Positions 10,170-57,903 of a stretch of DNA of 64,000 nt are shown here, one piece after another. Position 1 is the stretch's first letter. The number at the start of each line of letters is the position of its first letter. The position numbers and the translations under genes were made by a program. The notes beneath the pieces are model-generated. The model was not told where the DNA came from. It saw only the letters and a list, made by a program, of their open reading frames with translations, and searched no databases. This stretch comes from Eledone cirrhosa (lineage: Eukaryota): positions 5,766,001 through 5,830,000 of the forward strand of contig OZ024757.1 in assembly GCA_964016885.1 (NCBI GenBank). Reading direction: 5' to 3'.

Positions 10170-10585
10170 TATATATAATTGTTGTTGGATGCTTAAAGCA
10201 TCCGTATGCGGTAGGCCGTATGAGCACTCAATGCCCTCGTAGAGCAGAGTATGATATCACAGAAAAAGAGAATCAGTGTTGCGATGAAAGGAATTTATTG
10301 GACATATTACACATGTTTCTCGGGCGACCAGCTCGAGGCACGATCGATATGGTGATCAAACCTGACTCTGAAATCACTCGGTCGTCGGATACTTCTCGAT
10401 TCTACGAAGAAGATTTTATAGGAAAATCTGCTTCGTAGAATCGAAGTATCCGACGACCGAGTGATTTCAGAGTCAGGTTTGATCACCATATCGATCGTGC
10501 CTCGAGCTGGTCGCCCGAGAAGCATATGTAATATGTCCAATAAATTCCTTTCATCGCAACACAGATTCTCTTTTTTCTGTAATAT
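10170..10585. mobile_element. Fold-back hammerhead-family insert: ~165-bp-arm palindrome (10254-10585) plus minus-strand 3' tail
   Basis: Near-perfect inverted repeat centred near 10419. Each arm carries a hammerhead 3' half (GAAA-CATATG-TA consensus, 10519-10530 and 10308-10319). Bulged hairpin on the minus strand at 10225-10251. Flanked by (TA)n. Confidence 0.75.
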
Positions 10586-10969
10586 ATATATATATATATA
10601 TATATATATATATATATATATACACACACACACACTTAGAAACTCTTCCTATGCAGCAAGAGACAGTAATGTTGTAATTCAATTCTTTGAAGTCTCTGGT
10701 TATAATTTCATTCAACAACACCACCAGCTCTCTCTCTTCCATCCTCTGTCTCCTCTCCCTCTGTCTCTCGATCAATCTACTCTTTCACAACCACTCTCTC
10801 TTTCTATCTTTCCCACTCTCTATTTATGAAGGTACCCTGAAAAACCCCGTATCTCGGGAACCTGTGCTCCAATTTATGTGAAACTTGTTTTATTACATTT
10901 GTATTCCCATTTCAGGGCCAACTTCCTTTCAAACTATTTTCCCATTATGTGCCCTTTTGGCTGTATTAC

Positions 10970-11405
10970 ATTACACTAGCAGAAAAATCACCCTTCGGGT
11001 GGTTTTCTGCTAGCATGTGTAGTGTGTATATTGATATTATATGCAGGTATATATATACATGTAGATATGATACATCAAATAAAATCGTAATTGACAATAT
11101 ATAATGCATAGAAATTGAACGAAGACTGCGTTACACTGTCTTATGTAATAAGTAACGTAATCCATGATACATTAAAAAAGACGATATTATATATAAACTG
11201 CATTAGGAGAAAATTAGTGACAGAAAATTAATAGTTTATTTTAGCGATGGCCAACCGGAAGTGTTGACATTTGAAAATTTTAAAAAAGTGAAATTTAAAT
11301 AAACAAAATATATTTAATGAACAGCCACGAAATTTAGTAGATAAATTATGTAATATTCATTATTTATTCAAGGTAACCCAACTTATTATACAAACGGGAT
11401 AAAAT
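10970..11405. repeat. Dispersed repeat with a palindromic CTAG-...-CACCCTTCGGGTG-...-CTAG end (possibly Helitron-derived)
   Basis: Reverse complement of 63160-63780. Terminal palindrome ctagcagaaaaatcaccc-ttc-gggtggttttctgctag at about 10976-11013. Confidence 0.7.
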
Positions 11406-11849
11406 AAAAAAAATTGTATGCAATCCCGCAGACCTTCCTTATAGTTTAGATTACAGGCAATAACAGAGTTTTAGTAGTAGATAGATAGATAGATATCTTT
11501 ATCTGCCACAGGGGCGCACACAAATGGGACATTACAAGACGTGACGGCGGGGATTTTACATAAAAATCATATAACTTTAACATTAATAAATAACAATAAA
11601 CTATATATAATAAAATAACAATTGAAATCCCCAATAAGGGGGGAACGTTACTACAGGGTTGTTTTACACCCCATGGATAGAACAACCCTCAACACCAGGA
11701 ACACGTTTTGTAGGTGTTCCCGTCTTCCCTCTGTTTATCTTCCTCAACCTACAGGTTTATATCACTCAGGACATTTTCGCCACATTCACTCATCTTTCAG
11801 CGAATTTACTGAGGTGAGATAGATAGACAGATAGATATATAGATAGATG

Positions 11850-12030
11850 TATTGTTTCTACTTTTGGCACAAAGCCAGCAATTACCCTAGTGCATTGCTG
11901 GTGCTTTATTCTATCGATTCCGTAAGGATGAAAGGCAAAATTAACCTTGGCGGGATTTAAACTCAAACCATAAAGGGTTGTAACTCTATGCCTCACAGCA
12001 TGGCGTCCGACTCTCTACCAATACTGCCCT
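11850..12030 (-). mobile_element. tRNA-derived SINE, near full length
   Basis: Reverse complement has the A-box region ggcagtattggtagagagtcggacgccatgc, B box gagtttaaatcccgcc and the conserved core. Confidence 0.85.
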
Positions 12031-12234
12031 TTTCTATCTACAGGAAGTGTTCCATCCCCAAGCCTTAATAGATTCAGGGTGAACAGCTCTGATGGTTCAT
12101 CTCTACCAAGGTTTGCCCTCATCTTTGTAGAGAGTTCAGCGTTGATTATTTTCAAACAGGCTCAGATTTCATCACTTATTTCCTTTTGGAATGACTGGGA
12201 GGGTTTGTCTAGAATGTCCTCCACTTCCTCTTCC

Positions 12235-14560
12235 CACTACTGCTGTACTACCACTACCACTACTACTACTACTACCACTACCACTACCACTACTACTACT
12301 ACTACCACTACCACTACCTCTGCTACTACTACTACCACTACCACTACTACCACCACGGCTGCTACCACCATTACTACTACCACTACTACTACTACTACTA
12401 CTACTACTACCACTACTGCCACCATTACTACTACTACCACTACCACTACTACCACCATGGCTGCTACCACCATTACTACTACCACTACTACTACCACTAC
12501 CACTACTACCACCACTGCTGCTACCACCATTACTAATACTACTGCTACCACCATTACTACTACTACCACTACCACTACTACCACCATGGCTGCTACCACC
12601 ATTACTACTACCACTACTACTACTACTACTACTACCACTACCACTACTACCACCACTGCTGCTACCACCATTACTAATACTACTGCTACCACCATAACTA
12701 CTACTACCACTACTATCACTACCACCATTACTAATACTACTACTGCTACCACTACTGCTGCTACCACCATTACTAATACTACTACTGCTACCACCATTAC
12801 TACTAATACTACTACTACTACCACTACTGCTACTACCACCATTACTACTACTACTACTAGTGCTACCACCATTACTACTACTACTACTAGTGCTACCACC
12901 ATCATTACTACTACTACTACCACCATCATTACTACTACTACTACTATTACCACCACCACTACTACTACCACTACCACTACTACTACCACCACCACCACCA
13001 CCACCATTACTACCACTACTGCTATTACCACTACCACCGCCACTACTACTACTACTACTGCTGCTACGACTACTACATCTACCACTACTACCACCACTAC
13101 TACTACTAACACCACTACCACCATCACCACCACCATCGCTACCACTATCACCACTACAACTACTACTAACACCCCTACTACTACTAACACCACCACTACT
13201 ACTACTACTAACACCACCACTACTAACACCACTACCACCATCGCTACCACTATCACCACTACAACTACTACCAACACCACTACTACCACTATCACCACTA
13301 CCACCACTACTACTACTAACACCACTACCACTATCACCACCACTACCAGCTAAACTACCCCCACCACCATTACTACTACTAACACCACTACCACTATCAC
13401 CACCACTACCAGCTAAACTACCCCCACCACCACTACTACTACCACTTCTACCAATATTATTACTACTACAAATACTACTACCACCACCACCACCTAAACT
13501 ATCACCACCACTACCACACCCACCACACACAACCATTACCACTGCCACCACCACTATCAACTGCCACCACCTTCTACCCTTATCACCACCACCACCACCA
13601 CCACACCCACCACACACAACCATTATCACCACCACCACCACCACCACACCCACTACCATCACCACTATCAACTGCCACCACCTTCTACCCTTATCACCAC
13701 CACCACCACCACCACACCCACCACACACAACCATTATCACCACCACCACCACCACCACCACACCCACTGCCACCACCACTATCAACTGCCACCACCTTCT
13801 ACCCTTATCACCACCACCACCACCACCACACCCACCACACACAACCATTATCACCACCACCACCACCACCACCACACCCACTACCATCACCACTATCAAC
13901 TGCCACCACCTTCTACCCTTATCACCACCACCACCACCACCACCACCACAACCATCACCACTATCACCATCACCCCACATCACCACCACTGCAACCACCT
14001 TCTACCATTATCACCACCACCACCACCACCACTGCCACCAACACTACCATTATCACCATCATCACCACCACCACCTCCACTACCATCACCACCACCACCA
14101 CTACCATCACCACTATCACCACCATGGCCACCACCACCTTCTACCATTATCACCACCACAACCACTGCCACCACCACTACCATTATCACCACCACCACCA
14201 CCACCACTATCACCACCACCACCACTATCACCACCACTGGCACCACCACTATCACCACCACCACCACCACTACTACCACCACTGCCACCACCACTACCAT
14301 TATCACCACCACCACCACCGCTATCACCACCACTGCCACCACCACTATCACCACTATCACCACCACCACCACTGCCACCACCACCACCACCACCACTGCC
14401 ACCACCACTATCACCACTATCACCACCACTGCCACCACCACCACCACCACTGCCACCACCACTACCATTATCACCACCACCACCACCGCTATCACCACCA
14501 CTACCACCACCACTATCACCACTACTGCCACCACCACTACCATTATCACCACCACCACCA
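12235..14560. repeat. Compound (ACT/ACC)n trinucleotide tract with ~120-bp higher-order units at 13500-13940
   Basis: Long low-complexity run open in several frames on both strands (poly-T, P, V, H, G/S). Confidence 0.95.
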
Positions 14561-56529: not shown

Positions 56530-56880
56530 TTAGAAAGTGAGGTTTTTTTTACAAAATGAAAAATAACCGAGGTGTCCTACACGAGTGAAAGTATAAAGAA
56601 AAAAAGATGAAATCGAAAATGCAACTGGAGTCTTATTTAAAAAAATATATATATATTTATTTGGTTCCTTTACCGGTTTCGCAGTTCTTCTGCTTTTCAA
56701 AAGTAGAGTTGAGATGGAGGGTCTGTGGTTTTTCTCTTGTGAGGAAAACCACAGACCCTCCATCTCAACTCTAATTTTGAAAAGCGGGAAGAACTGCGAA
56801 ACCGGTAAAGGAACCAAATAAATATATATATTTTTTTAAAAATAAGACTCCAGTTGCATTTTTGATTTCATCTTTTTATA
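56530..56880. mobile_element. Fold-back insert (~140-bp arms) with a minimal U3/A8 hammerhead in each arm
   Basis: Palindrome about 56592-56880. Minus strand 56668-56703 reads ctt-TTGAAAA-gcag-aagaa-ctgc-GAAA-ccgg-TA-aag. Plus-strand copy at 56775-56810. Confidence 0.8.
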
Positions 56881-56912
56881 TATATATATATATATATATA
56901 TATATATATATG

Positions 56913-57026
56913 TATCATCATCATCATCCTTTTACGTCCGTTATTCCCTGTTTGCAGGGGTAGGACAGGAACTGATTCTGGCTTGATTTCTACAGCTGGA
57001 TGCCCTTCCTAACACCAACCTCATAC
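56913..57026 (-). mobile_element. ~110-bp RTE 3'-tail unit (also at 52187-52302 on - and 53319-53435 on +)
   Basis: (atc)n-ttttacgtc...ggaactgattctggcttgatttctacagctggatgcccttcctaacaccaacctc. Confidence 0.8.
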
Positions 57027-57109
57027 ATATATATATATGTATATATATATATTATATGTATATTTGTATATATACATATGTTATATGTATATATATATGT
57101 ATATATATC

Positions 57110-57570
57110 CAAAATTAAAATTAAGGGTTGTCATGTCTGAGAGACATGCGCCATATCCACCGTAGAATAAGCTCAAAGATTAGATCCGAGCATTACATAT
57201 CAACTAGAAATAGATTGACATATATATATATATAATAAATACATGAAACAATCACAGGGTATAATTTGTAAAGAATGTAGGCACACATAGCTAGGTAGGT
57301 AACTAATTAAAGTTTAACTAGAACTTCAAATATAGATACCATTTAAAATGATTAATCTCCTTTGTATATATTTCTTTAAGTAAGAAATATATTTCACCTA
57401 TTAATCCGTAAATCACAGCAGTTAAATACTTGGATGTTCACCAAAGGAGAAGAAGATAACCATCTGCGTTTACACAGCAAATGCAAAACTGCGAATGATT
57501 TGGACCACGTGTTGCCACGGGGATGACGTGGTTCAACGAGTGTATTTTTAAAAACGGAATGAGGGGTACA
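57110..57570 (-). mobile_element. Hammerhead-superfamily tail element (family shared with 24640-24895)
   Basis: Minus-strand bulged hairpin gctc-ggat-cta-atct-tt-gagc at about 57170-57191. Possible decayed ribozyme ctcct-ttggtga...gaaatatata..aggag. Confidence 0.55.
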
Positions 57571-57647
57571 CACACACACATATATATATATGTGTATATA
57601 TACATACATCTATATATATATATATATATATATATATATATATATAT

Positions 57648-57903
57648 ACACAATATATTAATAAATGGAAACTATATTTATAAAACCATATATATTTTAT
57701 TATACATATTTCAAGGGCCACATTCTTTAGGATCTCTTCTTCTCTAAAAGACATTGTGGCCCTTGAAATATGTATAATAAAATAAATATAGTTTCCATTT
57801 ATTAATATATTGTGTAGTTACACCACTAAGTGTTGAGTGCTTTATATCAGTTATAAAAATGTTTAAGCTTGTTGAATCCCAACAAATTAAATATAACCTC
57901 TGC
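57648..57903 (+). mobile_element. Fold-back version of the 48813/52521 family, folded at stem II
   Basis: Palindrome 57648-57815 with arms beginning gtggccctt-GAAA-tatgta-TA-ataaaata. The CTGATGA half is replaced by the inverted 3' half. Tail ttgagtgctttatatcag...ttgttgaatcccaacaa. Confidence 0.8.

Follow-up and report, generated by a model that had tools for sequence, protein, structure and literature searches.

A doubled, bulged hairpin beside the insertion ends of Hydra-clade Penelope-like elements in Eledone cirrhosa: a candidate signal for reverse transcriptase

The reverse transcriptases (RTs) of Penelope-like elements (PLEs) form the sister group of telomerase. Short RNA folds that recruit an RT in cis, and that are kept by non-autonomous partners, are found in the 3′ stem-loops of partnered long and short interspersed elements (LINEs and SINEs) and in the 3′ untranslated region (UTR) of R2. 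In telomerase RNA, elements flanking the template provide a protein-bound fold beside the short template that pairs with the end of the DNA repeat. The present analysis concerns a small hairpin in a 64,000 nucleotide (nt) stretch of the Eledone cirrhosa genome (assembly GCA_964016885.1, contig OZ024757.1, positions 5,766,001–5,830,000 of the forward strand); this whole stretch is termed the window. The hairpin is carried by PLEs of the Hydra clade, where it is present twice in the leader, and insertions of these elements end beside one or the other of the two copies.

The closest described elements are the Hydra-clade PLEs with a C-terminal endonuclease (EN+ PLEs; Craig et al. 2021, PMC8557442). 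They have in common with the elements analyzed here the motifs RW[RK], DKT, CxCX5C and CxxC..E..N..CxH, the absence of CCHH, a hammerhead, (TA)n targets, inverted 5′-truncated copies and a one-sided tail. The main text of that paper does not contain the words “hairpin” or “stem-loop” and explains the tail otherwise, yet the motif is visible by eye in its own consensus file.

Poseidon_Ac (Frangieh et al. 2024, PMC11167929) is similar in its two internal RT starts that bound the tail, in the requirement for RNA 3′ of the start and in the cutting of AT-rich DNA on both strands. The starts at the two sites were seen in vitro; approximately 54 nt of RNA 3′ of the start are needed, i.e. RNA to +172 with starts at +111–118. 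In the available portion of that paper no conserved or duplicated motif is defined, and the Poseidon starts are inside the open reading frame (ORF), whereas the Hydra-clade ends are in the leader beside a target-like TA run. The choice of template by PLE RTs and the origin of the one-sided tail are described as open questions (PMC8557442; PMC11167929).

Carrier elements and their paired hairpins

The genome searched is a 3.0-Gb AT-rich assembly. DNA searches were made for four families, with 40 candidates scored per search, and these gave near-identical copies that insert into (TA)n, with a constant 3′ end at (TA)n and varying 5′ truncation. An inverted copy that is without the last 60–90 nt is frequent. 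The copies display the PLE traits of pseudo-long terminal repeats (pLTRs) or partial tandems, 5′ truncation, an inverted 5′ copy and a one-sided tail, and this insertion layout is the PLE architecture given in PMC8557442.

The initial annotation of this DNA had assigned the hairpin to unrelated families. The carriers are instead sister families of one PLE clade, and four of the six families among the hairpins that it quoted (A, B, D and F) trace to Hydra-clade PLEs. Long copies of these four lead to ORFs with RWR, DKT, CxCX5C and CxxC..E..N..CxH and without CCHH. The RWR and SDKT motifs are aligned in the Hydra ORFs; L199 has RWR and the L201 copy has CWR. Family E was found via the protein alone and has many intact ORFs. 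Single intact ORFs of 709 and ~715 amino acids (aa) contain YRDD and a C-terminal endonuclease, and the motif is present in the pLTRs of such intact elements. Pfam gives no significant match for the three Hydra proteins scanned. For a model of a relative, P0004 (predicted local distance difference test 90.7), the top three fold matches are all telomerase reverse transcriptases (TERTs) (Foldseek, TM 0.33–0.38, 11%–14% identity). Unit lengths are ~3.25 kb (E), 3.53 kb (B) and 4.2 kb (D), or 3.2–4.2 kb overall, with long 3′ UTRs. The Hydra clade in PMC8557442 is “generally short” (<3 kb), which is a descriptive and not a diagnostic trait.

The hairpin consists of NCTC, an inner stem, a 2-nt UN bulge and GAGN, mostly followed by AC. 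Intact tandems of family E have two copies in the leader, H1 and H2, the latter ~25 nt before the ATG. The order is hammerhead, UA-rich 3–5-mer, H1, spacer, UA-rich 3–5-mer, H2, ATG. The spacer between H1 and H2 is 37–59 nt in other samples and up to ~85 nt in this genome. The hairpin had been placed near the 3′ end of the elements; in intact tandems the pair belongs to the 5′ leader of the unit that follows. H1 opens the tail, and the 3′ junction is shortly before the uncopied H2.

Tail-less (inverted) copies mostly join (TA)n 2–7 nt before H1. Tailed copies join it 2–6 nt before H2, thus H1 is kept and H2 is absent. Because tailed copies end at H2 and tail-less copies at H1, the PLE tail is the H1–H2 interval. 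With offsets counted after shared TA bases, all 11 TA-ended copies of family B that end at H1 do so at −5, and 37 of 37 ends at H2 are at −3. Family E has 14 of 27 ends at −2 from H1 (the others at −3 to −12) and 7 of 7 at −3 from H2; 13 of 16 family F ends are at −6 from H2, and 7 of 11 family C ends at −3 from H1. In family D, 38–40 copies end at −4 from H2; the ends of D, like those of family A, were not mapped by exact matches, because of private changes in the reference copies.

H2 was predicted from family E and was found afterwards in B, D, G, G2, I, Z, F, W and Y, i.e. in 10 families including E. Two more families with paired motifs, represented by L186 and L234, have unmapped ends. 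A genome-wide search with the H2 pattern gives 343 matches, compared with 3 for a reversed control. Among the first 30 of the 343, H1 is 25–110 nt upstream in 18 (antisense 2) and a Hydra ORF is downstream in 8. At 20 loci examined, the 700 nt that follow H2 in family Y contain no frame longer than 104 aa, and the hammerhead, H1 and H2 are kept. It is a non-coding family of >1.2 kb (L365–L392) and, on these features, looks like a non-autonomous partner that retains the signal.

A stop of cDNA synthesis at H2, hinted by three family E loci, was rejected, as only one of 20 family B 5′ ends lies within H2. In family A, additional TTTTA-type repeats and stretches of T at the tail-less junctions of L037, L044, L051 and L057 suggest that initiation involves slippage. 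Family B forms head-to-tail arrays, with long open frames, at G000:C1:91475466-91486569 and in L223–L226; the period is ~3.54 kb, and there are four units at C1. Many frames of 713 and 784 aa are intact, and together with the arrays they are features pointing to recent activity.

The Pfam GIY-YIG domain was abandoned as a route to the carriers, as it selected CCHH-type PLE clades instead. These also end at (TA)n and provide a negative control: among their TA-ended copies, 1 of 17, 0 of 2 and 0 of 2 have the motif. A different short hairpin, CTC-GTGT-loop-ACAC-CTC, is common to the two non-Hydra tail clusters L152 and L034 and may be a signal of the CCHH-type clade's own.

Conservation of the fold and its distribution

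Thirty hand-picked instances of the hairpin have 98.6% paired cells and 57 two-sided changes, compared with 17.8 after shuffling. This alignment was chosen for pairing and the test is therefore circular, so a motif-blind test was added. For the motif-blind set, every insertion was taken in which (TA)n is followed by an inverted arm, a direct arm, a tail and again (TA)n; the 210 tails fall into 45 clusters, a count that includes simple-repeat artefacts. RCTY..GAGY anchors are at the tail start in 19 of the 45 clusters. Seventeen of the 45 add at least two inner pairs and the 2-nt bulge (null mean 0.21, maximum 3 in 2000), with five clusters seeded by the analysis's own family queries and with statistics that ignore relatedness. 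At least three inner pairs form in 15 of the 19 anchored clusters when the bulge is set to 2 nt; with 0 nt the number is 3, with 1 nt 0, with 3 nt 2 and with 4 nt 0. Twelve of the 19 have A-T as the outer pair and seven have G-C, and no cluster mixes the two. Compensatory swaps are seen between the homologous subfamilies D/D2, G/G2 and M/M2.

A covariance model (CM) scan of 400 kb picked for other PLE proteins gave 56 hits. Of the best 38, 34 lie 30–110 nt before a microsatellite (background 12.8%); six training sequences of the model came from these same loci. In the comparison beyond this genome, CM-aligned hits show 115 two-sided changes versus 37.9 shuffled in an alignment that is fitted to the model.

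A protein search gave 500 relatives, and the 120 listed are 38%–56% identical. By protein, 92 loci were retrieved from metagenomes and genome bins, many of them from marine samples; their G+C content of 0.29–0.51 suggests several hosts. The viral_contigs set yielded no relatives. L329–L342 are Hydra PLEs inside genome bins labelled bacterial, and are probably contamination from a host animal. The N-terminus is present in 48 of the 92 loci, 35 of which have at least 130 nt upstream. These 35 protein-selected leaders contain two motifs in 22 cases, one in 9 and none in 4, versus 1, 6 and 28 for the antisense strand, and two motifs occur in 0 of 392 ORF-window controls. Both motif copies of one relative have TCTC:GAGA. 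The distance from the end of H2 to the ORF start is 15–66 nt.

In 52 of 89 instances the motif is preceded, at a distance of 3–4 nt, by the end of an alternating TA run, and TA runs of at least 4 nt precede the motif in 48%, compared with 26% in shuffles (maximum 38% of 1000). Tailed ends are 1–4 nt before H2 in L257, L278, L280, L296 and a copy matching L319, and, by eye, just before H2 in L272, L274, L322 and L332. Inspected by eye, the Hydra consensus file of PMC8557442 contains the exact motif in Hydra-1_Ajap (twice, before the ATG), Hydra-2_Ajap and Hydra-2_Amil and a near-exact form in Hydra-1_Amil and Hydra-1_Crog; Hydra-1_Obim is ambiguous. Consensus elements with the motif span echinoderm, coral and copepod.

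The initial annotation had also put the ribozyme on the same strand as the hairpin in unrearranged copies. A regex-matching hammerhead core is upstream on that strand in 12 of the 38 CM hits and is not found in the remainder; many copies are 5′-truncated or have variant cores. Putative hammerheads in the pLTR have canonical cores in families A, D and F and, by eye, variant cores in B and E. The variant core of L223 (family B) is U3-A8, as for the Schistosoma PLEs in PMC4209133, and L203 (family E) has, by eye, an A at core position 4. An Rfam scan of the window shows no match at the gathering score, hammerhead included; at E ≤ 1, the best 150 of 323 matches are microsatellite-driven microRNA matches and one weak trpB match. 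The hairpin is not stem III of the hammerhead, since the complete ribozyme sits 35–100 nt upstream. In File S2 of PMC8557442, stem III of several Hydra-element hammerheads is ACTC-n-GAGT, the letters of the hairpin outer stem. A common origin of the two stems, or cross-pairing between them, is possible.

Copies in the window

All eight hairpins quoted in the initial annotation are present in the window and represent six families. Quoted positions are off by at most 2 nt on the plus strand and are the low end of the feature on the minus strand. Seven further copies were found, one of them degraded. A strict descriptor gives 14 matches in the window, compared with 6.6 ± 2.7 in 100 shuffles (shuffle maximum 13). 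A distance of about 40–80 nt between hairpin and (TA)n had been noted; 11 of the 14 matches end 40–65 nt before (TA)n, with a background of 5.7%, these 11 being of seven families and hence non-independent.

Family A is represented by an H1 at 33785–33803 (+), with a tail that extends to 33847 and is followed by (TA)n, and with a tail-less inverted arm from ~33670. This family is tied to a Hydra ORF in L194, L211 and L213. A relative of family A has H1 at 5587–5605 (−) with the inverted arm upstream. The family B H1 at 19079–19102 (+) has a tail to 19150 and a palindrome at 18953–19069; this copy matches the 3′ end of the intact L226 element at 97% identity, and has a local duplicate with H1 at 20715–20738 (+). 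Family C has H1 at 10226–10250 (−), next to a palindrome at ~10257–10581.

The family D copy at 48683–49403 is 5′-truncated and 96% identical to L192. Its H1, at 48746–48765 (−), has one private mismatch: the TAGT at 48746 is a change of that copy, and most genomic copies have GAGT. The hammerhead core with stem II is at 48829–48869 (−), 63 nt upstream of H1 and on the same strand. A family F copy has H1 at 48573–48597 (+), a tail to 48654, an inverted tail-less arm from 48215 and a hammerhead core with stem II at 48466–48512 (+), on the strand of H1. The second copy of family F in the window has H1 at 56425–56449 (+). Elsewhere in the genome, L372 joins the H2 of this family to a Hydra N-terminus.

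Family I has H1 at 57171–57191 (−), and the H2 of the family is present in L246; the diverged H1 of this family at 24678–24707 (−) was among those quoted. H1 of family J at 59848–59868 (−) and of a K-like family at 26991–27024 (−) were absent from that list. A relative of family D has H1 at 52424–52440 (−) and a tail-less inverted arm with a hammerhead at 52529–52570 (+). The family E H1 at 58039–58084 (+) has a long inner stem, and its inverted tail-less arm starts from ~57951. The degraded H1, also from a relative of D, is at 57820–57838 (+), and its tail reaches the (TA)n at 57904. At 57722–57754, the junction of the inversion in a D-like copy is filled with 33 nt from the start of the family D ORF, which suggests a template switch.

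Other sequences in the window include the 3′ ends of two CCHH-type (Neptune/Nematis-like) PLE families at 56530–56884 and 27433–27682. Two related GCTC...TCGAGT stem-like repeats, 137 nt apart, are at 1858–2044, without (TA)n after them. A fragment of a LINE-type RT, recognized from its translation, and tandem arrays (repeat periods 21, 68 and 80 nt) are at 16578–18073, 6343–9941, 35181–37083, 41444–42391 and 59940–61113.

Proposed role of the hairpins

The earlier view of the hairpin as a candidate RT-recognition signal stands as regards a conserved, covarying fold and its positional tie to (TA)n junctions and PLE pLTRs; the binding itself is conjectural. Judged from sequence comparison, H1 and H2 are probably RNA signals that lie 3′ of the priming site and direct the RT to initiate internally, just 5′ of each hairpin. 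The RT-endonuclease would bind H1 or H2 on a tandem or circular transcript, and the GIY-YIG domain would nick (TA)n. The nicked end would likely pair with the short UAU(A) 2–6 nt upstream of the hairpin. The tailed arm would arise from priming at H2 and the tail-less arm from priming at H1, the two arms together making up the inverted-plus-tail insertion.

Tailed insertions lack H2, although it determines where they end; its action must therefore be on the template or on some longer intermediate. RNA binding with priming 2–6 nt upstream is favored because H2 is uncopied yet end-fixing and because Poseidon shows internal starts. The template printed in PMC11167929 displays, by eye, a stem-loop after the start site, which is a lead only.

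Several observations weigh against such a role. At the H2 position family A has a bare 4-bp GCAC:GTGC stem only, a partial miss, and its ends at H1 are spread along an A-rich run, between −3 and −15. H2 often has a single inner pair (pair 2 is formed in 11 of 20), and the end in L258 is 27 nt short of H2. Family C has no ORF linked in four long copies, and family I has H2 without a link to a Hydra ORF so far. The test for the strand of folding is weak (G-U 15 versus A-C 7). The Poseidon start site is reported as non-homologous to the cut DNA, in contrast to the TA microhomology here (PMC11167929).

The motif might alternatively act as DNA, with copying running through H2 and the GIY-YIG endonuclease binding the GCTC...GAGC repeat or an extruded hairpin and trimming the intermediate at the adjacent TATA to give the two ends. 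Craig et al. ascribe the tail to endonuclease resolution (PMC8557442), and according to earlier work cited in PMC11167929 the endonuclease required the Penelope tail to recognize plasmid DNA. Each hairpin is also adjoined by a TA run that resembles the target, and the weakness of the strand test leaves room for a DNA role. However, a spacer that varies from 5 to ~50 nt, inner pairs that change in a compensatory way and a register held strictly at 2 nt suit a single-strand fold over a double-stranded site. The H2 of family E closes a C-UUCG-G loop, and this loop is stable in RNA. RT initiation at both tail boundaries was directly seen for the Poseidon PLE (PMC11167929), and DNA trimming is considered unlikely.

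If the hairpins regulated translation, transcription or RNA processing of the leader, the ends would be set by nearby TATA microhomology alone. The short distance from H2 to the ORF start (15–66 nt) and the presence of PLE promoters in the pLTR (PMC8557442) would fit this. Family Y, however, keeps both hairpins with no ORF after H2, and TA runs are all over the AT-rich leaders while the ends concentrate at the two that adjoin hairpins, which makes this explanation quite improbable. That the motif is a chance or relic palindrome, functionless and inherited by related repeats, deserves hardly any credence. The families do share ancestry and the hand-made alignment was selected for pairing, but the motif is kept twice at only ~44%–55% protein identity and with differing spacers, and the antisense and ORF controls are near zero. 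The H2 pattern count of 343 against 3, with the motif-blind tails and the leader counts, largely refutes it.

The proposed RNA signal differs from the LINE/SINE and R2 folds, which are single and within the copied 3′ end; the Hydra signal is 3′ of the priming point and doubled, with H2 uncopied. The likeness to telomerase is a modest one of fold, TERTs being the best matches of the Hydra model, and any repeat addition by the Hydra RT is conjectural. It is tempting, if rather doubtful, to suppose that a dimeric Hydra RT-endonuclease grips both hairpins and primes both strands of a staggered (TA)n cut, which would give tailed and tail-less arms in one event. A short UAUA beside each bound hairpin would then serve as the template on which the primer aligns, as in telomerase, slippage could add TA repeats, and the elements would grow their target microsatellites. 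If this were true, the two-hairpin leader would be a portable ~100-nt tag that loads any RNA onto a telomerase-related integrase.

A search of the literature found no description of the motif or of the rule that the tail is the H1–H2 interval; subscription papers, notes in Repbase/Dfam and supplements may mention it. The available portions of PMC4209133, 10.64898/2026.07.22.740005, PMC7229834 and PMC10085705 do not describe the motif. The elements are known, and the doubled motif, as its sequence record indicates, is a real, clade-wide cis-element that is apparently unreported.

The finding provides a clade-wide candidate signal together with a rule, i.e. tail length equals the H1–H2 distance. 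Intact ORFs and a short RNA are now at hand for mutant-and-rescue tests. In repeat-rich invertebrate genomes, the motif marks the true boundaries of these elements and flags their non-autonomous partners.

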